Assembly: GCA_963779415.1 (NCBI GenBank)
Contig: CAVZYA010000002.1
Coordinates: 672,001 to 736,000 of the forward strand
Reading direction: 5' to 3'
Length of the DNA stretch: 64,000 nt
From: an uncultured Acidobacteriota bacterium
GTDB taxonomy: Bacteria; Acidobacteriota; Thermoanaerobaculia; UBA5066
The position numbers and the translations under genes are program-made. This document shows, piece after piece, positions 8,226-43,483 of the stretch. The notes beneath the pieces are model-generated. The model was not told the origin of the DNA. It did no database searches and saw only the letters and a list, made by a program, of their open reading frames with translations. Within the stretch, counting starts at the first letter, position 1. Each line of letters opens with the position of its first letter.

Positions 8226-9143
8226 CTAACGTGGCGGCGGGGTTTGGGCCGGGGCCGGGCTCGGGCCGGGCGGCTCGAAGAAGCCCGGCGGTACGGGCTG
8301 GTTCACGCGGAGCGAGTCGACGCGGAACGAGGAGACCTCTTTCTCCCCGGAGAAGGCATCCGAAAAGAAGGGATATTCGAGGCCTTCAACGGTCCGGAAG
8401 TCAGAGTAGCGCAGGCGGATACGCTCTTTCTTCCCCTCCGGGGAAGCGGCCGGGCCCTCCCAGGAGAATTCCGCGATCCGGTGCTCGCCGTCGAGGACGG
8501 CCTCCGTCGTCTGACCGGCCATCTCTATCACGAGGACTTCGCGCCGCTCTCCACCCGGCCCGGCAGAATCACCGACTGATACCCGGAAGAGCTTGTGGCG
8601 GCGCCATTTAAGGATGGAGACGGGGTTCCGCATGGCGGTCGTTTCGAGCTTCGCTCTTTCCTCCTCGGGCAGATCGACATTCCCCAAAGCGCCGGTCATC
8701 CACGCCCGGTCGGAGGTGATGGTCGTCGAAAAGACGTCTCCGGTCGGGAGAACGACTTCCCGCCGGACGTTGTCGGGGTAGAGGAACGTGGTCTTGATGG
8801 TCGCTTCTTTTTCACCGAGAGCGGATCGTTGCCTGAGCTTTCCGGTCGATTCGAGGCTCTTCACCCCGTCGACGACCGCTGCCCCGCCCGTCGCCTCGAC
8901 GGCCTTCTCGAGAAGCTTCCATGCAGGCGTATCCGGTGTCGTGAAGTCGCTCCACTGAACCTTGTCGGCACCGGACATGGCCGGCGGGGCCGTGTCCGGG
9001 GCAGGGGGTCCGGCCACTTCCGCGGTGGCCCTCCCGGCGGGCTCTGTAGCCGGGGGAGAAGCCGGTGGGGTGGCGCAACCCGTGACGATCAGCAGGCCCG
9101 CGGCAGCGAGTGCCGGTGTGCGTCGAAGGGAAGAGACTTTCAT
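8226..9143 (-). CDS. Putative lipoprotein, function unknown
   Basis: GGGAGG SD, lipobox IVTG-C, Pro/Ala linker, then A.EA.GG...V..VKS and YSDFR.V.GL.YPF motifs. Confidence 0.7.
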   Translation of the reverse strand: MKVSSLRRTPALAAAGLLIVTGCATPPASPPATEPAGRATAEVAGPPAPDTAPPAMSGADKVQWSDFTTPDTPAWKLLEKAVEATGGAAVVDGVKSLESTGKLRQRSALGEKEATIKTTFLYPDNVRREVVLPTGDVFSTTITSDRAWMTGALGNVDLPEEERAKLETTAMRNPVSILKWRRHKLFRVSVGDSAGPGGERREVLVIEMAGQTTEAVLDGEHRIAEFSWEGPAASPEGKKERIRLRYSDFRTVEGLEYPFFSDAFSGEKEVSSFRVDSLRVNQPVPPGFFEPPGPSPAPAQTPPPR

Positions 9144-32277: not shown

Positions 32278-32348
32278 GCCTCCATTATGGCCGCGAGAAC
32301 CGTCCGTCCGCGCGGGGCCATCGTATAGTCGTGAGAGGTCGCACGACG

Positions 32349-33176
32349 GTGTCCGAGGGAACGCGCATCCGGATCTCCCTGATCGACTACGTCAACACGT
32401 GGCCGCTGACGTGGGGTTTCCTCAAGGGGGCCGTGGAGCGGATCGAGCTGTTCCACGACACTCCGGCGGCCTGTGCGGCCCGCCTGGCCCGCGGGGAGGT
32501 GGACGCCGGCCTGATCCCCGCCGTGGAGGCGGCGCGGATCCCCGGGGTGCGGCTCGTCCGCGGCGTCGGGATCGCGGCGCGAGAGCGGGTCCGGAGCGTC
32601 GTGCTCGTGTCGCGGCGCCCTTTCGGAGAAAAGACGTCCCCGCTCCGGTCCGTGGCACTCGACGTCTCGTCGCGCTCCTCGGCGGCGATGGTCCGGATCC
32701 TCCTCGAAGAGCTTTACCGGCTCCGGCCGGAGTACCACGAGGCGGTGCCCGACCTTTCCGAGATGCTGCGCCACCACGATGCCGCGCTCCTCATCGGAGA
32801 CCCGGCGCTGACGGCGGATCTCCAGGGGCTTTTCGTCCTCGACCTCGCGGAGGGATGGCGTCGGCTGACCGGACTCCCCTTCGTCTTCGCCGTCTGGGCC
32901 GTCCGTCCCTCGGTCCCGCCGGAGCCCTTCCTCTGGTCGAGGGACTACGCCCAGCGGCACTTCGGGGAGCTGGTCGACGCGGCGACCGCGCGGACCAATC
33001 TTCCGCGCGAGATCGTCTCCGGGTACCTCGACGGAAATCTCCACCACGATCTCGACGCCGACGACGAGAAGGGGCTCGCCGAGTTCTACCGCCGGGCGTT
33101 CGGGCACGGGCTCATCCCGTCTCCCGACGTTCCCCCCTTCTCGGGCGTGCCGCTGGTTCCCCACCGGGAAATCTGA
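32349..33176 (+). CDS. mqnA: Chorismate dehydratase (futalosine menaquinone pathway)
   Basis: YVN..PL, V.SV.L.S, SRSS, LLIGD.AL and W..LTGLPFVFAVW motifs. Confidence 0.9.
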   Translation: MSEGTRIRISLIDYVNTWPLTWGFLKGAVERIELFHDTPAACAARLARGEVDAGLIPAVEAARIPGVRLVRGVGIAARERVRSVVLVSRRPFGEKTSPLRSVALDVSSRSSAAMVRILLEELYRLRPEYHEAVPDLSEMLRHHDAALLIGDPALTADLQGLFVLDLAEGWRRLTGLPFVFAVWAVRPSVPPEPFLWSRDYAQRHFGELVDAATARTNLPREIVSGYLDGNLHHDLDADDEKGLAEFYRRAFGHGLIPSPDVPPFSGVPLVPHREI

Positions 33177-33209
33177 CTCGCGGCGTCGATCGGGTAGAGT
33201 TCGCTTTTC

Positions 33210-34397
33210 ATGCCGGTCGCCGAAGCTCCCGAGACGACGCTCCTCCCGACCCCCCCGGCCCCCGGCCTCGGGGGCTCCCCCCGCGTCGAGGCGATCCTCG
33301 GGCGCGTGGCCCTCGGGGAGCGGCTCTCGTTCGACGACACCCTCGTCCTCTTCCGCGAGGCGACCCTCCTCGAACTCGGCGAGGCGGCGCACGCCGTCCG
33401 CTGCCGGATGCAGCCGCCGGGGCGCGCCACCTACCAGGTCGACCGGAACATCAACTACACGAACGTCTGCATCTACCGCTGCACCTTCTGCGCCTTCTAC
33501 CGGAAGGCGGGGGATGCCGAGGCGTACGTCCTTTCCCTCCCCGAGATCGGGCGGAAGGTGGAGGAGACGATCGCCCTCGGGGGGACCGGTATTCTCCTGC
33601 AGGGGGGGGTCCACGCGGAGCTTCCGTTCTCCTTCTACGAGGAGCTGCTCGGGTTCCTCCGGGAGCGCTATCCCGGCGTCCACCGGCACGCCTTCTCCGC
33701 GCCGGAGATCTATTTCCTCGCGAAGAAGGAGCGCTGGACGGTGGCCGAGACGCTTCGGCGCCTGAGGGACGCGGGCCTGATGTCGGTTCCCGGCGGCGGG
33801 GCGGAGATCCTCGACGACGAGGTCCGCAAGCGGATCTGGGCCCTGACGAAATCGCCGACGCCGAAGTGGGCCGAGGTCCACCGCGAGGCGCATCGCCTCG
33901 GGATGCCGACGACGGCCACGATGATGTTCGGCGTGGCGGAGACGTACGAGCAGCGCCTGAACCACTTCGACGTCGTCCGGAGGCTTCAGGACGAGTCGCT
34001 CGCCGAAGGCGCCGGCTCGTTCACCGCGTTCATCCCCTGGACCTTCCAGGAGGAGAACACGGCCCTCGAGCGCGAGGTCGAGACGGCCGGGGGGTACGAC
34101 TACCTCCGGACGCTCGCCCTCTCCCGCCTCTACCTCGACAACGTCCCGCACGTCCAGGGCTCGTGGGTGACCCAGGGGAAGAAGATCGGGCAGCTCTCGC
34201 TCGCCTTCGGGGCCGACGACCTCGGGTCGATCATGATCGAGGAGAACGTCGTCGCGGCGGCCGGAGCGCACAACCGGATGACGCGCGGGGAGATGACGGC
34301 CCTGATCCGCGACGCGGGCTTTTCGCCGGTCCAGCGCGGCTCGGTCTACGAGCGGTGCCGGGAGGCCTGCTGCGCCGCCCTGAACAGGGAGGCGTGA
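33210..34397 (+). CDS. mqnC: Cyclic dehypoxanthine futalosine synthase (radical SAM)
   Basis: RNINYTNVCIYRCTFCAFYR, PGGGAEIL, TATMMFG, AFIPWTFQ and SIMIEENVV motifs; next to mqnA. Confidence 0.9.
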   Translation: MPVAEAPETTLLPTPPAPGLGGSPRVEAILGRVALGERLSFDDTLVLFREATLLELGEAAHAVRCRMQPPGRATYQVDRNINYTNVCIYRCTFCAFYRKAGDAEAYVLSLPEIGRKVEETIALGGTGILLQGGVHAELPFSFYEELLGFLRERYPGVHRHAFSAPEIYFLAKKERWTVAETLRRLRDAGLMSVPGGGAEILDDEVRKRIWALTKSPTPKWAEVHREAHRLGMPTTATMMFGVAETYEQRLNHFDVVRRLQDESLAEGAGSFTAFIPWTFQEENTALEREVETAGGYDYLRTLALSRLYLDNVPHVQGSWVTQGKKIGQLSLAFGADDLGSIMIEENVVAAAGAHNRMTRGEMTALIRDAGFSPVQRGSVYERCREACCAALNREA

Positions 34398-34404
34398 GGG
34401 AGTC

Positions 34405-35090
34405 GTGGGGCCGGACTCGCTCGAACGCCGTCTTCCCGATGAGGTCGCGGGACTCTGCCTCGGCGTTCGAGCGATCGCCGGACGCCGTCTTCGTGACGGA
34501 CCGGCGCAACCGGGTCGTCTTCTCGAACCGCGCGGCCGAGACTCTGCTCGGATTCTCCGACCGGCGAGACCGTCGGCCTTTCGTGCGAAGCGGTCCTCAA
34601 GGGGCGCGACGTCTTCGACAACCGCTATTGCGCGCTGAATTGCCCGGTGATGCAGATGGCGTCCCGCGGCGAGAGCGTGCGGGACTTCCGTCTCACGATT
34701 CAGGCCCGGGACGGCCGCGAGGTGACCGTGGAGCTGAGCGTCCTCCAGCTCGTCGTCGCGCCGCCGGATCATTACTACCTCGCCCACGTCCTCAAGCTCG
34801 TCGAGAGGACCGGTCGCGTGCCGGCCCCTCCCGACGTCGAGACGCAGCCTCCCCGGTCATCCCTCGAGATCGTCCGGGAGTCCACGGACGTGCGGGTCCG
34901 ACGGCTGACGACGCGGGAGGTCGAAGTCCTCGGAATGCTGGCGGCGGGCCGGACGACGCCGGAGATCTCGGCCCGGCTCTGCATCTCGGCTCTGACGGTA
35001 CGGAACCACATCCAGAACATCCTCGAGAAGCTCGAGGTTCACTCCAAGAGCGAGGCCATCGCCTTCGCGTTCCAGAAGAGGCTGATTTAG
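34405..35090 (+). CDS. PAS-domain LuxR-family regulator (frameshift near 34557, possibly another near 34458)
   Basis: Joining frames gives SPDAVFVTDRRNRVVFSNRAAETLLGF-..ETVGLSCEAVLKGRDVFDNRYCALNCP...LTTREVEVL..LAAG.TT.EIS.RL.IS..TVRNHIQNILEKL. Confidence 0.8.
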
Positions 35091-35110
35091 GCTCTTCCGT
35101 CCGGTCCTGG

Positions 35111-35129
35111 TGTGTATTCACCAGACACA
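35111..35129. promoter_or_regulatory. Inverted repeat, candidate operator for the redox cluster
   Basis: TGTGT-N9-ACACA, about 130 nt upstream of ATG 35260. Confidence 0.3.
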
Positions 35130-35259
35130 ATGGTGCGGGATCGGGATTGGGAATCACTTCCTCCGGGCGCACCTTGCCTTCCGATACCAGGACGATGAAG
35201 AAACCCTGCGCGAAGACGCCCCGTTCCACGGGAGCGAACCCGGACTCAAGGAGACGGTC

Positions 35260-36612
35260 ATGAAGAGGCTCCTTTCGTTTTTCTCCGTCGCCTTCGGGCT
35301 CTTTGCCCTCTCGGTCCTGCGGGAGACGCCCGCCGCCGCGGTCCCCAGCTTCGCGCGTCAGACCGGACTCGCGTGCAACGGGTGCCACACGACCCCCCCG
35401 GAGCTCAATGCGGCCGGACGCCGGTTCAAGCTGACGGGGTACACGGACCGGGCGGACGACACCGCGACGGTCAACAACGAGCCGGGGAAGAAGCACGCGG
35501 GCCTCGATCTCCTGAAATCGCTTCCGGTGTCGGCCATGCTCGACGCGTCGTTCACGGCGGTGAAGACCCCGGAGCCGGACAGCAAGAGCACCACCTTCCA
35601 GTTTCCGCAGGACGTCTCGCTCTTCCTCGCCGGAGGGTGGTCCTCGCACGTCGGCAGCTTCATCCAGATCACCTACAGCACGCAGGACGATCATTTCGGC
35701 ATCGACAACACGGACATCCGGTACGCGGACAAGACGACGCTCGGCGGCAAGGAGCTCGTCTGGGGCCTGACGCTCAACAACAACCCGACCGTCGAAGACC
35801 TCTGGAACACGACCCCGGCCTGGGGATTCCCGTGGATCGGAAGCGACTGGGCGCCCGCGCCGGCCGCCGCCCCGCTGCTCGCGGGCGCCCTCGGGCAGGA
35901 TGTCGCCGGGCTCGGCGCGTACGCGATGTGGAACGAGCACCTCTACGTGGCCACGGCGTTCTATGCCACGAATCACGTAGGGGACTCGCAGCCGAATACG
36001 GGGACCAATTACTCGATGAACATCAGCGGCGTTGCGCCGTACTGGAGGGTCGCCTGGCAGCAGTCGCTCGACGCGGACAGCACCCTCGAGGTCGGCACCT
36101 ATGGAATCCGGGTGAACTCGACTCCGAACGGGATCAGCGGTCTCAGGAACGGTTACACGGACTGGGGCTTCGACCTCCAGTACGACCGGACGGTCTTCGT
36201 CCGAGACGTCGTCTCGGTCCGCGTCACCTACATCCGTGAGACGTCCACGCTGGACGCGACGTACGACCAGGGCGGTGCGACCCAGGCCGCGAACAACCTC
36301 GGGATGTTCCGCGCCAATGTCGGGTACCACTTCGGCAACGTCTTCTCCCTGACGGCGGGCCTGCAGGATGTGATCGGCACCGGCGACTCCCTTATCTGGA
36401 CGCCGGCGCCCGTGACCGGCAGCGCGACCGGCAGCCCGAACAGCATGTCGTATCTCCTGAGCCTCTCGTGGTGGCCGGTCCAGAACGTCCAGATTGCTGG
36501 CCAGTACACGGCGTATACGAACTTCAACGGCGGGAACTCGAACTACGACGGATCCGGCCGAAATGCGAGCGACAACAACACGATCTATCTGCTCGCGCGG
36601 TTCATCTTCTGA
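35260..36612 (+). CDS. cyc2: Cyc2-like outer-membrane monoheme cytochrome c-porin fusion
   Basis: AAGGAG SD, signal peptide, then VPSFARQTGLACNGCHTTPPELNAAGRRFKLTGY (Cyc2 heme motif). Aromatic beta-strand body, 450 aa, terminal Phe. Confidence 0.82.
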   Translation: MKRLLSFFSVAFGLFALSVLRETPAAAVPSFARQTGLACNGCHTTPPELNAAGRRFKLTGYTDRADDTATVNNEPGKKHAGLDLLKSLPVSAMLDASFTAVKTPEPDSKSTTFQFPQDVSLFLAGGWSSHVGSFIQITYSTQDDHFGIDNTDIRYADKTTLGGKELVWGLTLNNNPTVEDLWNTTPAWGFPWIGSDWAPAPAAAPLLAGALGQDVAGLGAYAMWNEHLYVATAFYATNHVGDSQPNTGTNYSMNISGVAPYWRVAWQQSLDADSTLEVGTYGIRVNSTPNGISGLRNGYTDWGFDLQYDRTVFVRDVVSVRVTYIRETSTLDATYDQGGATQAANNLGMFRANVGYHFGNVFSLTAGLQDVIGTGDSLIWTPAPVTGSATGSPNSMSYLLSLSWWPVQNVQIAGQYTAYTNFNGGNSNYDGSGRNASDNNTIYLLARFIF

Positions 36613-36654
36613 AACCCGTGGTCCTCAGGACCGCGTTCCGAAGGAGGGAAGACC

Positions 36655-37233
36655 ATGAAGGGAATGCTCGTCCTCGTCTTTTCCGCGGCCGTGGCCCTGC
36701 CGCTCGCGGCCGGGGAGATCCATGGCAAGGTCGTCTGCAAGGGAGTACGCAACAGCAGCGACGCGGTCGTCTACGTGGAGGGCGTTCCGGGAAAGAGCTT
36801 CCCGCCGCCCACGGAGCACGCGAAAGTCAACCAGTTGAACCTCACGTTCGTTCCCCACGTCCTTCCGGTCCTCATCGGGACGACGGTTGACTTCTACAAC
36901 TCCGACGCCGTCCTCCACAACGTCTTCTCGCCCGACGCCTGTGCCGAGAAGTTCAACCTGGGGACATGGCCGAAGGGACAGTTCCGGAGCTACACCTTCA
37001 AGAAGGATTGCGTGGCGACTCTCCTCTGCAAGGTACATCCGGAGATGGAGGCGTTCGTCGTGGCCGTCCCGACCCCTTACTTCGCCGTGACGAAGCCCGA
37101 CGGCTCGTACAAGATCACGGAGGTTCCCGACGGCTCCTACACGCTGAAGGTCTGGCACCCGAAGCTGAAAGGAACCCAGAAGACGGTGCAGGTCGCCGGG
37201 GCGGCGGCAGCGGATTTCGAGATCTCGAAGTAG
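36655..37233 (+). CDS. Periplasmic cupredoxin-like protein with carboxypeptidase-regulatory-like segments
   Basis: Signal peptide; type-1 Cu ligand pattern HNVFS...CKVHPEM. Confidence 0.8.
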   Translation: MKGMLVLVFSAAVALPLAAGEIHGKVVCKGVRNSSDAVVYVEGVPGKSFPPPTEHAKVNQLNLTFVPHVLPVLIGTTVDFYNSDAVLHNVFSPDACAEKFNLGTWPKGQFRSYTFKKDCVATLLCKVHPEMEAFVVAVPTPYFAVTKPDGSYKITEVPDGSYTLKVWHPKLKGTQKTVQVAGAAAADFEISK

Positions 37234-37243
37234 GCCGGACGGC

Positions 37244-39073
37244 GTGGCCGACTTCAGCCGCGACTGGCTCGAGCGGAACTTCCCCTGCAAGGAAGCGTGC
37301 CCGGTCCACACTGAGGCCGGCAAGTACGTCACGCTCATCGCCGAGGGGCGGTACCGCGAGGCCTACGCCGTGGCCCGCAAGCCGAATCCGCTCGCGTCCA
37401 TCTGCGGGCGGATCTGCGCGGCCCCGTGCGAAAGCGTCTGCCGCCGGGGGGAGCTGGACGCCCCGATCTCGATCCGGGCCCTGAAGCGGTTCGTCACGGA
37501 GCGGTTCGGCGTGGAGAGCATGATCGACCTCTCCGTCCTGGCCGAGATCTACGGCCAACGCACCGGTCGGTATCCCGAGCGCGTGGCGGTGATCGGCTCG
37601 GGTCCGGCCGGCCTGGCGTGCGCCCACGACCTCGCCCTGATGGGCTATCCGGTCACGATCTTCGAAGCCGCGCCGGTTGCCGGCGGGATGCTGCGGCTCG
37701 GCGTGCCGGAATACCGGCTGCCCCGGGCTCTCATCCAGCTCGAGATCAACGCGATCCTCTCGCTCGGAGTGGAGCTGGTGACGAACACGCGCCTCGGGCG
37801 CGACGTCACTCTCGCCGACCTGAGGCGCCAGGGATTCGCGGCGATCTTCCTCGGCATCGGCGCGACGCGGAGCCGGGATCTCGCCGTTCCGGGCATGGAG
37901 CTCGACGGCGTCCTCCGCGGGATCGACTACCTCCTCAACGTGAACCTCGGCTACAAGGTCGAGATGGGGCAGAGCGTCGTCGTGATCGGCGGCGGAAACG
38001 TGGCCTTGGACGTGGCGCGCACGGCCGCGCGCGGCGGCGAGCAGGAAAACCTCCAGCGAAATCTCTCCATCGTCGCGGCGCTCGACGTGGCACGCAGCGC
38101 CGTCCGCTTCGGGGCGCGTCAGGTGACCGTCTGCTGCCTGGAGTCCGAGGCCGAGATGCCGGCGTCCCCCGAGGAGGTCGAGGAAGCGCTCCGCGAGGGG
38201 ATCCGGTTCCGCCACCGAGTCGGCCCGAACCGGATCGTGGGCGAGAACGGGACCGCGACGGGCGTCGAGCTCCGGGCCGTCTCTCGAGTCTTCGACGAGG
38301 GCGGGCGCTTCGCGCCGGAGTTCGTTCCCGGCTCGGAGACGCTCCTTGCGGCGGACACTCTCATCGTCTCGATCGGACAGACCGCCGATCTCTCCTTCCT
38401 CCGGCCGGAGGACGGCATCGAGTCGGCGCGGGGGAGGATCACCATCGACCCCGAGACGCTCGCGACGTCCGCCCCGGGCGTCTACTCCGGCGGCGACGCG
38501 GCCTTCGGGCCGCGGATCGCCATCAACGCCATCGCCGACGGCAAGCGGGCGGCGCGCTCGATCGACACGCATCTCCGCGGCCGGCCCCGGCCGGAGGCCG
38601 AAACCGAGGTCGAGATCGAGATCCACGACCGCTACGAGCGCCCGTGGGACTACGAGGGAATCCCGCGGCAGAAGCCGCCGAGCCGTCCGATCTCGCGGCG
38701 GATCGGGATCGCCGAGGTGGAGGAGTGCTTCGGCGAGCGCGAGGCCCGCCTCGAAGGAAGTCGCTGCCTCCACTGCTGGACGAACACGATCTTCGAAGAG
38801 AGCGCGGCGGAGGGGACGGAGTGCCTCCTCTGCGGCGGCTGCCAGGACATCTGCCCGGAGGACTGCATCGAGATCCTTCCCTCGGCCGGGGTCGAGGAGC
38901 TTCCGCCGGGCGCCCGGGAGCTGGCCCCGCTCCTCGTCGAAGGCCGGCTCGAGGGTTCCATCCTGATCAAGGACGAGGAGACCTGCATCCGGTGCGGACT
39001 CTGCGCCGCTCGCTGTCCGGCGGGCACGATCACGATGCAGAGCTTCGAAACGAGGGAGGCTGCCCGTGCCTGA
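37244..39073 (+). CDS. GltD/NfnB/DsrL-like FAD Fe-S oxidoreductase with C-terminal 2x[4Fe-4S] ferredoxin
   Basis: PCKEACP, CGRICAAPCE..CRR, GSGPAG, GGGNVA, RCLHC, CLLCGGCQDICP and CIRCGLCAARCP motifs. Confidence 0.9.
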   Translation: MADFSRDWLERNFPCKEACPVHTEAGKYVTLIAEGRYREAYAVARKPNPLASICGRICAAPCESVCRRGELDAPISIRALKRFVTERFGVESMIDLSVLAEIYGQRTGRYPERVAVIGSGPAGLACAHDLALMGYPVTIFEAAPVAGGMLRLGVPEYRLPRALIQLEINAILSLGVELVTNTRLGRDVTLADLRRQGFAAIFLGIGATRSRDLAVPGMELDGVLRGIDYLLNVNLGYKVEMGQSVVVIGGGNVALDVARTAARGGEQENLQRNLSIVAALDVARSAVRFGARQVTVCCLESEAEMPASPEEVEEALREGIRFRHRVGPNRIVGENGTATGVELRAVSRVFDEGGRFAPEFVPGSETLLAADTLIVSIGQTADLSFLRPEDGIESARGRITIDPETLATSAPGVYSGGDAAFGPRIAINAIADGKRAARSIDTHLRGRPRPEAETEVEIEIHDRYERPWDYEGIPRQKPPSRPISRRIGIAEVEECFGEREARLEGSRCLHCWTNTIFEESAAEGTECLLCGGCQDICPEDCIEILPSAGVEELPPGARELAPLLVEGRLEGSILIKDEETCIRCGLCAARCPAGTITMQSFETREAARA

Positions 39074-39566
39074 ACCGCCCGTGGATCCCCGGACGAACTC
39101 CCTGCCGGAGGCCGGTGAGCCGAACCGGCGCGACGTCCTGACGCGGATCGGGGTCGGCGCCTGCGCGGTGGCCGCCGTCGGCTCGGGCGCCGTCACCCTA
39201 GACTTCCTGAAGCCGAAGGTTCTCTTCGAGCCCGCGACGACCTTCCGCGCCGGGAGTCCGCTCGACTACCCCGAGGGGACGGTCCGTTTCGACCGGGAGA
39301 GAAAAGCCTACGTCATCGGCGGGGACGGTGGGGTCTACGCGATGTCGGCCGTCTGCACCCACCTCGGATGCATCACCCGGTACGTCTCGGATGAGAGCGC
39401 CATCGCCTGCCCCTGTCATGGGAGCCGGTTCGACCTCGAGGGAAACGTCACCCACGGACCGGCCCCACGCCCCCTGCCATGGCTCGAGGTGAGGCTCGAC
39501 GACAAGGGAAACCTCGTCGTGGATACCAGCGTGGTCATTCCGCGCGGAAAGGTGCTGAAAGCATGA
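39066..39566 (+). CDS. Rieske [2Fe-2S] subunit of a Rieske/cytb complex
   Basis: Tat-like [27 protein letters not shown]. Confidence 0.95.
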
Positions 39567-40336
39567 GCGCCCGCTTCGAGACCGCTCTCTTCGACCGCCT
39601 TCGCGCCACGTCCGTCTGGCGTTCCATCGTCCGCCACGGCGTCGACGGGACGAACCGGAACAGCTCGCTCGTCATCTTCGAGAACCTCTTCCTGCACGTC
39701 CACCCGGTGAAGGTGCGGGAGAAGACCCTCCGGTTCACCCACACGTTCTGGCTCGGAGGGGTGACGCTCGTCGCGGCGGTCGTCCTGATCGCCACGGGAA
39801 TCCTCCTGATGTTCTACTACCACCCCTCCGTCCCGCAGGCCTACCGCGACATGAAGGAGTTGGCGTTCGTCGTCGACAACGGCCTCTTCCTCAGGAATCT
39901 TCACCGGTGGGCCGCCCACCTGATGGTCTTCTCGGCGTTGCTTCACATGCTGCGCGTCTTCTACCACCGCGCCTACCGGCCCCCGCGTCAGTTCAACTGG
40001 GTCGTCGGCGTCGTCCTCCTCATCCTGACGCTCCTCCTCTCGTACACGGGCTATCTCCTACCGTGGGACCAGCTCGCGTTCTGGGGCGTCTCCGTCGGGA
40101 CGAACATGGCCCGGACGGCGCCGATCGTCGGCGAGAAGCTCCGATTCCTCCTCCTCGGGGGGAACGTCGTCTCCGCGAACGCCCTCCTCCGCTTCTACGT
40201 CCTCCATTGCGTCGTCCTCCCGGTCGCCCTCGTCCTTTTCATCGCCGTGCACGTCTGGCGGATCCGCAAGGATGGCGGCGTGCAGGGTCCCCTCGAGGAG
40301 ACCGGGGACTCCGCGGAGCCGGAGGTCCGCCCATGA
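39563..40336 (+). CDS. Cytochrome b N-terminal (b6-like) subunit
   Basis: [16 protein letters not shown]...[19 protein letters not shown] and RFYVLH...H motifs; ATGA overlap with the Rieske gene. Confidence 0.95.
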
Positions 40337-41043
40337 CGACCGGAATCCCCCTCAAGGTCACGGAATCGAACGACCCCGTCGCCGTGCCTCGCCGTGTCGC
40401 CCTCGTCCGGCCGGACATCCGGCCGGCGGTCCGCCGCCGCGAGGAAAAGTGGGTGATGACGTTTCCGCACCTGATCGTCCGGGAGGTCATCCTCTTCCAG
40501 GTCGTCGTGATCGCCCTTTCGCTCGTGGCGCTCTTCGTCGACGCGCCTCTCGAGGGGATCGCGAATCCCGTCGAGACTCCCAATCCGGCCAAGGCGCCCT
40601 GGTATTTCCTCGGCCTCCAGGAGCTGCTTCACTACTTCCCGCCCGTCGTCGCGGGAGTTCTCCTGCCGGGCCTCGTCGTCCTCGCACTCGTCGTCATTCC
40701 GTACGCGCGGATCAACCTCGCCGCCGGGCCGCTCTGGGCCCGGCCCACCCCGAGGCAGACGCCGGCCGTCGCGGCCGCCGTCGTCGCGGTCGTCCTCCTC
40801 TTCGCGGCCTTCCGGTGCTGGCCGATCGTGATTCCGACGATCGCGATCGGAGGCGCCATGTTCGCCGCACGGGGCGGCGGGAACGCCGGAGCCTTCCGGC
40901 GGCTCCTGGCACGGGTCACGCTCCCCGAGTGGATCATGACCTGGTTCGTCGTCATCGCTGCCCTCCTCACGATCATCGGAACCTTCTTCCGCGGACCGGG
41001 CTGGTCCTTCGTCCTGCCCTGGTCTCCGGGAGCGACCTTCTGA
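40333..41043 (+). CDS. Cytochrome b C-terminal subunit (subunit IV-like)
   Basis: [31 protein letters not shown] and GTFFRGPGW motifs; ATGA overlap. Confidence 0.9.
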
Positions 41044-41048
41044 AGAGA

Positions 41049-43079
41049 ATGGCCGTGCCGATCAAGCGCCTCTTTGCAGTCTCGAGCCTCCTCTTCCTCT
41101 TCGTCCTCGCGGTCTCGCCTGCCAAGAACGCCCTTCGCCCGTACCGGTCCTTCCAGCGGCGGTTCGCCCGGCTGGGGGCCGAACGCGCGAAGAGCCAGAA
41201 GGCGGCAGGCGACTACGAGAGCCGGCCGATTGCCATCCACCAGATCTGGCTGCGGAACTTTGACGATCGCGTCGACCGCTGTACGACGTGCCACCTCGGC
41301 GTGGCCGATCCGCTCATGGGGGACGCGCCGGAGCCGTTCCGGACTCACCCGAGGACCGAGCACACGCCGGACGGATTCGAGCAGATCGGGTGTACCTCGT
41401 GCCATGGCGGCCAGGGCCTCGCCACCTCGGAGTCGGAAGCCCACGGAACGGCGAAGGACGCGGGGCCGCCGATGACGCCGGCGGCTTACCTCGAGGGGGG
41501 GTGCGGGCGCTGCCACGGCGGGGAGATCGTGCCCGAAGCGCCGCGCCTCTCCCGCGGACGCGCCCTCATGACGCGCTTCAGTTGCTATGCGTGCCACGTC
41601 GTCCGGGGTCAGGAGACGTTTCGGTCGGAGGCACCTCCCATCGAGACCGTCTCCCTGAAGACAGGGGGCGAATGGGTCCGGCGATGGCTGAAGAACCCGC
41701 GCTCGGTCGACCCGAACGCGACGATGCCCAACTTCCAGCTCTCGGATACGGAGATCGACGAGCTGGCGAACGCCCTCTTCGCGCGGGCCGTCCCGGACGA
41801 GCTCGCGCGCGCGATTCGCGGGGCGTCGGACGAGCCGCCCGGAAACGCCGCCAGCGGCAAGAAGATTTTCTCGGAGTCCCGCTGCATCAGCTGCCACACC
41901 GTCGAGGGAAAAGGGAACGGCTCGGCGCCGGAGCTCTCGAAGGTCGCCTCTTCCGCCACGCGCGGCTGGCTTCTCGCGTTCCTTCGATCTCCCCACTCCT
42001 TCAACCCGAAGACGCGGATGCCCGAGTACGGCTTCTCGGAGACGGAGTCGCGCGACGTCGTGGCCTATCTCGAGGAGGAGTTTCGCGACTTCGACGCGCC
42101 GAAGGAGATCCTCGACCCGATCCGGCCCAACCAGACGGTCGCCGAGCGGGGCGAGAAGCTCTTCCGGCGGTTTGGCTGTTTCGCCTGCCACGGGCCGCTC
42201 CCGGCCTCCGAAACGGAGAGGTTCGGTCCGACGCTCGACGGCATCGGGGACAAGAAGCCCGCCTCCCTCGACTTCGGAAAGCGGAACGACCTGCCGCCCA
42301 CGCTGCCGGCCTGGCTCGCCGCCAAACTGGAGGCCCCGCGCTCCTTCGCGCAGGGGCTCCGGATGCCGTCGTTCGGCTTCTCGCCGGAGGAGACAAAAGC
42401 GATCGTGACGGCGCTCCTCGCCATGGGAGCTGACCCCGTCCCGGAAACCTACCGGTACACGCCGATACGGCCGCCCGCCGTCCTCCCGGGCGGAGAGACG
42501 GGCAAGCTCATCGACCGGTACCGGTGTCTCTCCTGCCACGAGATCGGCGACCGCGGGGGCGACATCTCGACGGCCCCGCTCACGCACGAAGGAAGCAAGG
42601 TCCGGCGCGACTGGCTCGTCGGGTACCTTCTCGTCTCCACGTCGATCCGACCGGTCCTGGAGGAACGGATGCCGATCTTCCGGATGTCCCCCGGCGACGC
42701 AACCCGGTTGACCGACGCCATCGAGAGCTTCTGGGTCGACGCGGCGATCCCGGAGGACCCGTTCGCCGGAAAGCCTGCCGCGGACGCCGATCCGCGCGAA
42801 GGCGAGCGTCTCTACACGGAGCTGGGGTGCCGTGGCTGCCACCTGATCGGCAACGCCGGAGGGGGCTACTACGGGCCTCCGCTGACCGACACGGCGACGC
42901 GCCTGAAGCCGGGCTGGGTCTTCTATTGGCTGAAGGGGCCGCAGCGCTGGCGCGCCGACGTCCGCTGTCCGGACTACGGCCTGCGCGACACCGATGCCCT
43001 GCGCCTGACGGCCTATCTCGAGACGCTCAAGGCCCCCCCCGAGACGAACACAGCCAGAACGGCGGGAGGTGCAAAGTGA
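41049..43079 (+). CDS. Octaheme cytochrome c (676 aa), N-terminally anchored
   Basis: Eight CxxCH motifs: CTTCH, CTSCH, CGRCH, CYACH, CISCH, CFACH, CLSCH, CRGCH. Confidence 0.92.
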   Translation: MAVPIKRLFAVSSLLFLFVLAVSPAKNALRPYRSFQRRFARLGAERAKSQKAAGDYESRPIAIHQIWLRNFDDRVDRCTTCHLGVADPLMGDAPEPFRTHPRTEHTPDGFEQIGCTSCHGGQGLATSESEAHGTAKDAGPPMTPAAYLEGGCGRCHGGEIVPEAPRLSRGRALMTRFSCYACHVVRGQETFRSEAPPIETVSLKTGGEWVRRWLKNPRSVDPNATMPNFQLSDTEIDELANALFARAVPDELARAIRGASDEPPGNAASGKKIFSESRCISCHTVEGKGNGSAPELSKVASSATRGWLLAFLRSPHSFNPKTRMPEYGFSETESRDVVAYLEEEFRDFDAPKEILDPIRPNQTVAERGEKLFRRFGCFACHGPLPASETERFGPTLDGIGDKKPASLDFGKRNDLPPTLPAWLAAKLEAPRSFAQGLRMPSFGFSPEETKAIVTALLAMGADPVPETYRYTPIRPPAVLPGGETGKLIDRYRCLSCHEIGDRGGDISTAPLTHEGSKVRRDWLVGYLLVSTSIRPVLEERMPIFRMSPGDATRLTDAIESFWVDAAIPEDPFAGKPAADADPREGERLYTELGCRGCHLIGNAGGGYYGPPLTDTATRLKPGWVFYWLKGPQRWRADVRCPDYGLRDTDALRLTAYLETLKAPPETNTARTAGGAK

Positions 43080-43483
43080 CGGCGCAGGCCGCCCGGCGGC
43101 TCACCGCCGTTTTCGTACTCTTCGCGGCCGCCGGCTGTTCCAGGAAGCCGGGCGCGGTCCCGCAGGCGGCCGCCCCAGCCGAGCCTTCGTACGAGATGCG
43201 GCTGGGCCGGGGAATCTACCGCCACTATTGCCAGACCTGCCACGGGGAGACGGGAGCCGGCGACGGCTTCAATGCCTTCAATCTCGATCCCCGCCCGCGC
43301 GATCTCTCAGACCCCGTCTTTCAGAAAAAGAAGAGCGACGCCGAGCTCGCGGACGCCATCCGGCGCGGGGGATCGGGAGTCGGGCTGTCGCCTCTCATGC
43401 CGCCGTGGGGCCGGACGCTCTCGGCACAGCAGATCGACCAGGCCGTCCTCTACATCCGGTCGCTGAAGAAGACTTCACCCTGA
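43076..43483 (+). CDS. Monoheme cytochrome c lipoprotein
   Basis: GTGA overlap with GGGAGG SD, lipobox AAAG-C, CQTCH, P.PRDL and LMPPWG motifs. Confidence 0.88.
   Translation: MTAQAARRLTAVFVLFAAAGCSRKPGAVPQAAAPAEPSYEMRLGRGIYRHYCQTCHGETGAGDGFNAFNLDPRPRDLSDPVFQKKKSDAELADAIRRGGSGVGLSPLMPPWGRTLSAQQIDQAVLYIRSLKKTSP

Follow-up and report, generated by a model that had tools for sequence, protein, structure and literature searches.

Several described systems resemble parts of the locus treated here, an operon of eight + strand genes at 35260-43483 of a 64,000-nucleotide stretch (the window; contig CAVZYA010000002.1, positions 672,001 to 736,000) from the genome of an uncultured acidobacterium. The first are the NAD(P)-linked Rieske/cytochrome b complexes of the anammox bacterium Kuenenia stuttgartiensis, Kustd1480-1485 and Kuste4569-4574 (PMC12954380; subfamily G in PMC5600118), in which cytochrome b is split into a b6-type protein and subunit IV, an NfnA-like oxidoreductase carries a lysine near its FAD-proximal cluster, an N-terminal histidine is fit to bind a dimer heme, and the models hold heme cn; the Kustd1480 Rieske protein was measured at +335 mV (PMC12954380). 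The co-occurrence of short cytochromes b with NAD(P) oxidoreductases is already in print (PMC5600118), and a split b with an octaheme cytochrome is known in Nitrospina (PMC3578206). The second are the Cyc2 proteins, defined by AXPXFAR[Q/K][T/Y] before a single N-terminal CXXCH and by PXL four residues after the CXXCH (Keffer et al., PMC8406198), homologs of which have been noted in Acidobacteria and Fe(III)-reducing taxa (PMC10654088, PMC6344600). The third is the Geobacter cluster extHIJKLMNOPQS, which has been linked to reduction and is raised on Fe(III) (PMC5877670). The acidobacterial operon is a new combination built from these known kinds, and its genes are the following:

35260..36612, + strand: Cyc2-type fused monoheme cytochrome-porin of the outer membrane, 450 aa (motifs, AlphaFold2, Foldseek)
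36655..37233, + strand: periplasmic type-1 copper protein, 192 aa (ligand set, Atlas clusters)
37244..39073, + strand: cytoplasmic FAD/Fe-S oxidoreductase, predicted to be NAD(H)-specific, 609 aa (Pfam, solved homologs)
39066..39566, + strand: Tat-exported Rieske protein with a Ser/Phe second-shell pair (motifs, Pfam, PDB matches)
39563..40336, + strand: b6-type cytochrome b with four heme histidines (Pfam above cut-off, alignment)
40333..41043, + strand: subunit IV-like membrane protein (Pfam Cytochrom_B_C above cut-off)
41049..43079, + strand: membrane-anchored octaheme cytochrome c (exactly eight CxxCH)
43076..43483, + strand: monoheme class-I cytochrome c, probable lipoprotein (one CxxCH, Pfam above cut-off)

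We tentatively favor the reading that this operon encodes a forward-running, menaquinol-oxidizing Rieske/b complex of the NAD-linked anammox type, which is used anaerobically and has Cyc2 in the acceptor slot; we infer its physical assembly, NAD specificity, direction and acceptor. The arrangement of the genes agrees with the original prediction, made from the sequence without database searches, of eight co-oriented genes with gaps of at most 42 nt and start/stop overlaps: The intergenic distances are, in order, 42, 10, −8, −4, −4, 5 and −4 nt. Likewise, motif checks and Pfam matches bear out the identities it had given to the eight products. For conservation, a flavoprotein search of species genomes gave at least 530 relatives, of which we retained the 79 best loci, a set that leans to close kin because only the best-ranked relatives were included; 31 loci were dropped as too short and the 48 with sufficient flank were judged. 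In 43 of these 48 loci the eight genes are all present with their order unchanged, which is far beyond chance; the possibility raised in the original prediction that the cyc2-like and cupredoxin genes might not stay beside the bc genes in relatives is thereby answered in the negative. In two further loci the Cyc2 gene has been relocated downstream, in one (KSB1) flavoprotein and Rieske/b genes are followed by nosZ, and two are without Rieske/b. Carriers include Thermoanaerobaculia, Holophagae and Terriglobia. Two cultured species, Geothrix terrae and G. campi, have the full operon, a third, G. oryzisoli, has the flavoprotein gene, and flavoprotein plus Cyc2 occur in at least 22 of the 300 other Acidobacteriota genomes of an even sample (at least 7%). 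A search of the literature found no description of the joined operon, which neighborhood figures in subscription papers or supplements could nevertheless show; passages of PMC12285243, PMC11784278, bioRxiv 855817 and bioRxiv 2024.02.22.581617 do not describe it.

The porin is of the Cyc2 type by its motifs and predicted barrel. Its single N-terminal CxxCH is preceded by AxPxFARQT, with three residues between motif end and CxxCH (five after the Arg), and PxL is present, in agreement with the published motif definition; in addition, it exceeds the 365 aa taken as a Cyc2 criterion, has a signal peptide (judged by eye) and ends in a 16-strand barrel. In the AlphaFold2 model (147-row alignment, pLDDT 97.1) a small N-terminal heme domain is joined to the 16 barrel strands, and the Foldseek matches of this model are porins, while Pfam and NCBIfam returned no match. 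Upstream of the flavoprotein, a relaxed form of the motif was found in 48 of 51 relatives. The single CxxCH, the upstream motif, PxL, the 16-strand barrel and the adjacent gene for a copper or c-type periplasmic partner are shared with Cyc2 of Acidithiobacillus ferrooxidans, Mariprofundus Cyc2PV-1, Ghiorsea Cyc2 and Leptospirillum Cyt572; unlike these, the operon porin is attached to an NAD-linked Rieske/b complex and not to a rus-type oxidase operon. With Geobacter ext the operon has in common that a porin, multiheme cytochromes, a Rieske protein, an ExtP-type cytochrome b and an ExtQ-type subunit are clustered. However, the passages on ExtI describe a channel porin like phosphate porins and mention no heme, whereas the operon porin has a heme motif, and the ext gene list given there contains neither flavoprotein nor cupredoxin (PMC5877670). 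The Ext models also stayed below cut-off in the operon (ExtP 266/290, ExtQ 52/150, ExtS 81/100 bits).

The closest named relatives of the porin, at 30-37% identity, are plasmid proteins from Ralstonia, Caballeronia, Paraburkholderia, Methylocystis, Ideonella and Acidiphilium and from one A. ferrooxidans plasmid; the three that were inspected adjoin a c-cytochrome or HiPIP gene. Most of these host genera are not known as iron oxidizers. Within the operon, three deeply divergent porin classes alternate in the same slot among close relatives, with at least seven changes among 49 rows (L002-L073) on the flavoprotein plus cytochrome b tree (the porin tree is a quick tree, the remaining trees were made with FastTree). 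For example, L004 and L006 share 95% identity in the flavoprotein, yet their porins can be aligned over just 131 aa, at 28%. Since the porin classes are swapped in place, selection appears to keep a heme-porin there, whatever lineage supplies it.

The copper protein is a cupredoxin inserted in a carboxypeptidase-regulatory-like β-sandwich. Its type-1 ligands His88, Cys125, His128 and Met131 (His...Cys-x2-His-x2-Met) are present in 68/68 rows. Matches to blue-copper structures are weak (best E 0.002), and in neighboring Atlas clusters 53-87% of the members carry PF00127. The same family is found in aa3-oxidase/Rieske operons (32% identity). An assignment as rusticyanin was rejected, as no such match was returned by Pfam, NCBIfam or structure searches.

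The remaining genes make up the core. The flavoprotein, which is devoid of signal and transmembrane segments, scores above cut-off for Pfam Pyr_redox_2, Fer4_20 and Fer4_7 and combines an NfnA/StnC-type module with a C-terminal 2×[4Fe-4S] ferredoxin domain. With its best solved matches, the NfnABC/Stn proteins 9bov, 9n5u and 8oh5, it shares the FAD/Fe-S module, the permuted CxxC and the lysine at the cluster site (Lys81, replacing a ligand of the FAD-proximal cluster in 70/71 rows). These homologs belong to soluble complexes and have a YRR NADP-type site, whereas the host protein ends in the ferredoxin domain, lies beside a membrane complex and has an acidic C/S-L-E nucleotide site. This acidic site recurs in 66/71 rows and, in the wider sample, in 40 of the 41 flavoprotein-linked loci scored; no Rieske/b genes adjoin the flavoprotein in the five rows with YRR. 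Acidic residues at this position are read as a mark of NAD(H) specificity. The flavoprotein thus looks specific for NAD(H) and not NADP(H), so that the NADP part of the NAD(P) linkage originally proposed is not supported. As to the likeness to GltD or DsrL, all listed NCBIfam models for GltD, NfnB and DsrL were below cut-off, and the YRR NADP site is absent.

Twin arginines, both Rieske boxes, Ser120 and Phe122 are invariant in 63/63 Rieske rows, the Pfam match is above cut-off, and the best solved matches are Kuenenia 9rk4 and 9rk3, which lends substance to the comparison with anammox bacteria that had been drawn at the outset. In cytochrome b, the ligands His114/128/215/230 are kept in 62-63/63 rows with b6 spacing, and an extra N-terminal His45 is invariant both here (63/63) and in the flavoprotein-less rows (37/37). 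The nearest NCBIfam model is ExtP, below its cut-off as stated above. Subunit IV has at least four hydrophobic segments, and its PEWY-equivalent loop is KAPWYF, invariant in 57/57 rows. Three closely spaced hemes with histidine partners followed by five class-I domains make up the octaheme cytochrome, which has no solved homolog at E 1e-5; the distal Met is kept in four of the class-I domains, and at the last heme the position is Cys in 35/52 rows, Glu in 11 and Met in 4. Among the monoheme rows, CxxCH is found in 52/52, Met108 in 51/52 and the lipobox Cys21 in 33/52. Two cysteines might tune potentials: Cys216 of cytochrome b (40208-40210; 61/63 rows), next to a b-heme histidine, and Cys640 of the octaheme (42966-42968), located where the last heme would have its distal ligand.

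This core reproduces the anammox type in that a Rieske protein, a four-helix b6, subunit IV, a multiheme c (matching Kustd1485 in kind) and an NAD(P) oxidoreductase are encoded in one operon, and in its residues: Rieske Ser120 (63/63) and Phe122 form the pair seen in Kustd1480, Lys81 (70/71) corresponds to the lysine of the NfnA-like subunit, and His45 (63/63) to the dimer-heme histidine, the last equivalence resting on position in the N-terminal arm and not on alignment. It differs in heme cn. The cysteine of the CxGG motif that would hold it covalently occurs in 0/63 rows (Trp 41, Tyr 17, Phe 4, Gly 1; Trp in the host), and none of the 42 scored flavoprotein-linked loci described below carries it. 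Because this feature fails, we file the operon as a variant, not a plain member, of the Kuenenia NAD(P)-linked complexes. It further adds the outer-membrane Cyc2, the cupredoxin and the monoheme cytochrome, is without an HAO-like subunit, and unlike the Kuenenia systems resides in hosts that look heterotrophic, some of them cultured. Identity with cytochrome b6f was rejected: There is no cytochrome f and no cn cysteine, the loop reads KAPWYF, and the NCBIfam b6 models are below cut-off. That the flavoprotein meets cytochrome b had been suggested as well; a complex prediction of two cytochromes b and two subunits IV with the flavoprotein ferredoxin domain scored 0.34 against 0.00 for the best control (runs with at least 66% of contacts in common, partner pLDDT at least 56). 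The mark used is reached by 116/157 solved and 2/215 mismatched pairs, and at the mark scores of 0.60 or less comprise only 18 solved pairs, yet both mismatches, so the contact is weakly supported.

What accompanies the core was examined in the even sample (301 Acidobacteriota genomes including the host's; 153 cytochrome b matches; 123 genomes with a match at E ≤ 1e-60), from which 80 of the 153 loci were chosen, first those ranked highest and then others scattered further down the list, thus not at random; partners were scored within 8 kb upstream and 6 kb downstream. Of these loci, 42 have the flavoprotein and 38 do not. The 42 flavoprotein-linked loci carry Cyc2 (22), a periplasmic Nar/Nxr-like molybdoenzyme (11), clade II NosZ (2; 817 bits vs a cut-off of 625), a Qrc-like complex (3) or no visible partner (4); none has two partners and none has an O2 reductase within this range. 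Among the 38 others, we found a cbb3-like oxidase in 14, an aa3 oxidase in 7, Cyc2 plus cupredoxin in 4 and no partner in 13. Independent events on the tree are few, with 4 changes in the presence of the flavoprotein, 6 in that of Cyc2 and 12 of the partner. Within the Cyc2 clade (0.958), three Nar/Nxr loci form the sister group (0.875) of the Terriglobia Cyc2 loci, and this nesting suggests a direct swap in one slot. The terminal slot is therefore modular. A more far-reaching proposal, namely that Cyc2 is the terminal exit of an NADH-making, quinol-bifurcating complex, that Cyc2, NosZ and Nar/Nxr are plug-in sinks, and that their widespread core, having lost heme cn, short-cuts the Q-cycle, seems less likely than not.

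Several of these loci deserve mention in their own right. In L184 (2350-9121), L187 and L065, the last being a third NosZ case, the flavoprotein-Rieske/b-multiheme genes are directly followed by clade II nosZ, an arrangement for which a literature search found no description. In L130, L132, L133, L183, L185, L186, L188-L190, L192 and L193 the core is followed by a Nar/Nxr-like molybdoenzyme of 1140 aa (Tat-type, DMSO-reductase-II); these loci lie in two separate tree branches, and the L189 enzyme is only 26% identical to the others. L150 is without flavoprotein and has an 85-aa Cys-rich ferredoxin-like open reading frame after cytochrome b (8871-9125). Downstream "flavoprotein" matches in cbb3-linked loci were not counted, being partial; the neighbor checked in L162 is of the old-yellow-enzyme type. 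A 773-aa flavoprotein-Rieske fusion (P0382) is a single case, possibly due to a frameshift, and was not used.

According to the mechanism that we favor, menaquinol would be oxidized at the periplasmic quinol site. The first electron would pass via the b hemes and a probable extra dimer heme on His45 to the Fe-S chain of the flavoprotein and on to NAD+; the second would travel from the high-potential Rieske cluster to the octaheme, to the monoheme and/or the copper protein, and to Cyc2, which may deliver it to a high-potential extracellular acceptor such as chelated or low-pH Fe(III) or Mn oxides. At a bifurcating quinol site, the Rieske arm and the b-heme arm take one electron each, and the two electrons either both leave quinol or both move to quinone. 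Because both arms share one direction relative to quinol, NADH formation needs export along the Rieske arm, and owing to Q-cycle chemistry uptake at the Rieske side would have to use up NADH or rely on a functional Qn site. The linear path that had been proposed, from the cell surface through copper protein and hemes to menaquinone, flavoprotein and NAD(P)H, conflicts with this chemistry. NosZ is a one-way electron sink, and its presence in the slot therefore indicates that this type of complex can run forward. With textbook potentials (menaquinone −74 mV, NAD −320 mV) and a membrane potential of 150 mV, forward operation requires an acceptor with a potential of more than about +300 mV, so that N2O, nitrate, Mn oxides and Fe(III) that is chelated or at pH ≤5 qualify.

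Forward flow ending at Cyc2 is favored by the logic of the slot, in which Cyc2, Nar/Nxr and NosZ alternate and never occur two together in 42 loci, by the Ser/Phe pair that the Rieske protein shares with Kustd1480, which suggests a similarly high potential, by the occurrence of the cupredoxin family in aa3-oxidase/Rieske operons, and, weakly, by the complex prediction. Carriers also show no clear autotrophy, as judged from their genes: The host genome (4.36 Mb, 92% complete) gave no RuBisCO and no ACS match, and among 27 carrier genome entries (two of them duplicates) ACS is found in 0, the RuBisCO family in 3, where the context suggests RuBisCO-like or salvage roles, and weak citrate-lyase matches in 3. 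Published expression data also agree with the anaerobic use that we favor. In the metagenome-assembled genome CO124 (PMC10564751) we recognized by eye, from printed sequences at a contig end, a variant operon with genes for a Cyc2-motif protein, a monoheme cytochrome, the flavoprotein, the Rieske protein and cytochrome b; a monoheme c also replaces the cupredoxin in L144 (9103-9522). The Cyc2-motif gene stood at 0, 0, 0 and 0 reads per kilobase per million under oxic conditions vs 0.8-2.3 in four anoxic samples (log2 fold change −5.3, adjusted P 1.4e-4), the Rieske gene followed the same anoxic trend with no test value given, and a flavoprotein-less Rieske/b paralog was oxic-induced (PMC10564751). 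SBA1_90049-52, which match the Sulfotelmatobacter operon by length only, reached best ranks of 137-411 in anoxic incubations, whereas in native soil they ranked 1348-1977 or were left blank; no significant change is given for them, and they had been annotated as ordinary complex III (PMC6018796). Both data sets fit anaerobic use and do not indicate the direction of flow.

A number of points weigh against this reading. With a demand for more than +300 mV, neither Fe(III) minerals at pH 7 nor the majority of humic quinones could serve as acceptors, and enzymes of the Nar/Nxr type are able to work in both directions. The related loci are not independent observations, with only 4 flavoprotein and 6 Cyc2 changes on the tree. 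His45 and the R-K-D motif, tried as specific marks of the NAD route, were rejected as such, being equally kept in flavoprotein-less relatives, and hence give no proof of that route. The more usual exit, a DmsE/MtrA-family decaheme, already scores above cut-off in 14 of the 27 carrier entries, and oxidases elsewhere in 5/5 carriers mean that Cyc2 could feed them through the cupredoxin. Every biochemically tested Cyc2 is an Fe(II) oxidase, with measured potentials from −130 to +560 mV or more (PMC13692758, PMC13741234); if the potential were low here, export from a +300 mV Rieske cluster would be uphill. In CO124, finally, counts were very low, the change of the flavoprotein was not significant (adjusted P 0.21), the monoheme was unchanged, cytochrome b was counted once under oxic and once under anoxic conditions, and neither Fe(III) nor nitrate was present in the reactor (PMC10564751).

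These objections lead to the principal alternative, which we consider unlikely overall and yet the strongest competitor: Cyc2 would oxidize Fe(II) or reduced humics while the Rieske/b complex runs forward, both loading one pool of cupredoxin and monoheme cytochrome that drains to caa3 or to NO or N2O reductases elsewhere, so that outside electrons would yield ATP (mixotrophy) and never reach NAD via the complex. It accords with the oxidase activity of characterized Cyc2 proteins, with four loci that have Cyc2, cupredoxin and Rieske/b but no flavoprotein, and with the related plasmid porins that lie beside c-cytochrome or HiPIP genes without bc genes. Moreover, the host encodes ACIII-caa3, bd and a qNOR-like gene elsewhere in its genome, and heme-copper oxidases were found in 5/5 carriers tested; because of these, the absence of a terminal oxidase from the cluster, correctly seen in the original prediction, says little about its role. 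What speaks against this alternative is that an O2 reductase lies beside 0/42 flavoprotein-linked vs 21/38 flavoprotein-less loci, albeit through few independent events, that the CO124 variant is anoxic-induced (PMC10564751), and that Fe(II) input and the Rieske arm would presumably both load one carrier and so be in competition.

Alternatively, the flavoprotein might feed electrons from NADH to the b hemes, either pairing them with an incoming Cyc2 electron at the periplasmic menaquinone site or refilling quinol at the cytoplasmic side, with the quinol then serving bd, qNOR or Dsr complexes. The NAD(H)-type site would suit this, the reaction is thermodynamically downhill for donors near 0 mV, the host has the quinol sinks bd, qNOR-like and DsrMKJOP, and three relatives pair the core with a Qrc-like complex. 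Such NADH consumption would, however, be wasteful compared with complex I, which the host encodes, the same argument having been made for anammox bacteria (PMC12954380), and its inward form cannot apply to the NosZ-linked versions; we judge it improbable.

The original prediction had proposed electron uptake with reverse electron transfer, in which the proton motive force pushes Fe(II) electrons uphill, first to menaquinone and then to NAD(P)H; this is distinctly improbable in our view. It has in its favor the analogy with the uphill bc1 of Acidithiobacillus, the presence of all physical parts in one operon and the membership of Cyc2 in an established family of Fe(II) oxidases. A reverse Q-cycle would, however, need a cytoplasmic-side quinol site, and the heme-cn cysteine is absent in 63/63 rows; in established chemistry, a single bifurcating site cannot take in a high-potential electron and emit a low-potential one; and there is little sign of carbon fixation in carriers, in which the nucleotide site is moreover of the NAD and not the NADP type. 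Least probable of all is that the flavoprotein or the porin is merely co-expressed as a separate module, the porin acting on a substrate other than iron such as a small redox-active organic: Each module is missing in some loci, the nearest named porin relatives are mostly from hosts not known as iron oxidizers, the flavoprotein-cytochrome b interface score is weak and Cyc2 function is uncertain outside cluster 1 according to Keffer et al. (PMC8406198), but start and stop codons overlap, the slot keeps a heme-porin through at least seven class changes, and the anammox subunits co-migrate.

Upstream of the operon lie two candidate regulatory elements:

34405..35090, + strand: PAS-LuxR regulator with a Cys-rich PAS domain (Pfam PAS in the N-terminal and GerE in the C-terminal part, in different frames)
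35119..35135, no strand assigned: inverted repeat of the CACCA-N7-TGGTG type, candidate LuxR operator (spacer comparison)

The PAS-LuxR gene announced by the original prediction does start at 34405 but is frameshifted in the assembly. Since one contig in each of two sequencing runs (two studies) lacks one base at 34461 and one at 34559, and other host genes (cydA, hydrogenase) are split as well, both frameshifts are probably assembly indels. The gene is found upstream in loci of the Thermoanaerobaculia/Holophagae type and is lacking from most Terriglobia loci. Three PAS cysteines are kept in 37-38/39 rows and a fourth in 31/39, being Arg in the host copy; the domain might contain a redox sensor, Fe-S based or of another kind. 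The repeat pattern, derived from the same luxR-porin spacers in which it was scored, occurs in 31 of 38 relatives' spacers vs a mean of 0.08 (maximum 1) in 200 shuffles, and may be the operator of the LuxR protein. Neither a sigma-70 promoter nor a convincing terminator was found at the operon. The upstream futalosine-pathway menaquinone genes mqnA/mqnC (32331-34397), kept in 0/79 loci, and the downstream pruA, in place only in L007, were rejected as operon parts. L007 and L055 lie on contigs labelled Acidithiobacillales and Bifidobacteriaceae; because the L007 flavoprotein is about 92% identical to that of the host and pruA is retained, these labels are probably binning or naming errors.

The host is a soil-type acidobacterium whose close protein relatives carry the label Thermoanaerobaculia. 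It looks like a sulfite-reducing, facultatively aerobic organism by its genes, with a dsr cluster at C1:698000-713000 (L085; dsrA/B/D/L/N plus MKJOP-like genes, read by eye) that includes its DsrL-like gene. An ACIII plus caa3 oxidase operon lies at C3:283000-295500 (L082), an MtrA/MtrB-like multiheme-porin cluster at C3:384500-389000 (L083), amid many other multiheme cytochromes in the genome, and two more Rieske/b loci at C2:1117800-1122050 (L080) and C2:1464300-1470300 (L081), one with a heptaheme and one beside an NrfD-type module.

The proposal that quinol bifurcation allows some Rieske/b complexes to produce NAD(P)H has so far rested on slow-growing anammox bacteria and models, and its authors name the quinone short circuit as the main problem (PMC12954380); the loss of heme cn described here would remove precisely this short circuit. 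Since two cultured Geothrix species have the operon, the idea becomes accessible to ordinary physiology and biochemistry. Cultured Geothrix carriers reduce Fe(III). Given its occurrence in the sampled genomes of the phylum, the operon is of relevance to the cycling of iron in soil and in peat. The NosZ-linked versions suggest an energy-conserving route in N2O reducers. Finally, Cyc2 is widely used as a marker of iron oxidation; if it is true that Cyc2 exports electrons in these bacteria, counts of cyc2 in metagenomes would overstate iron oxidation.

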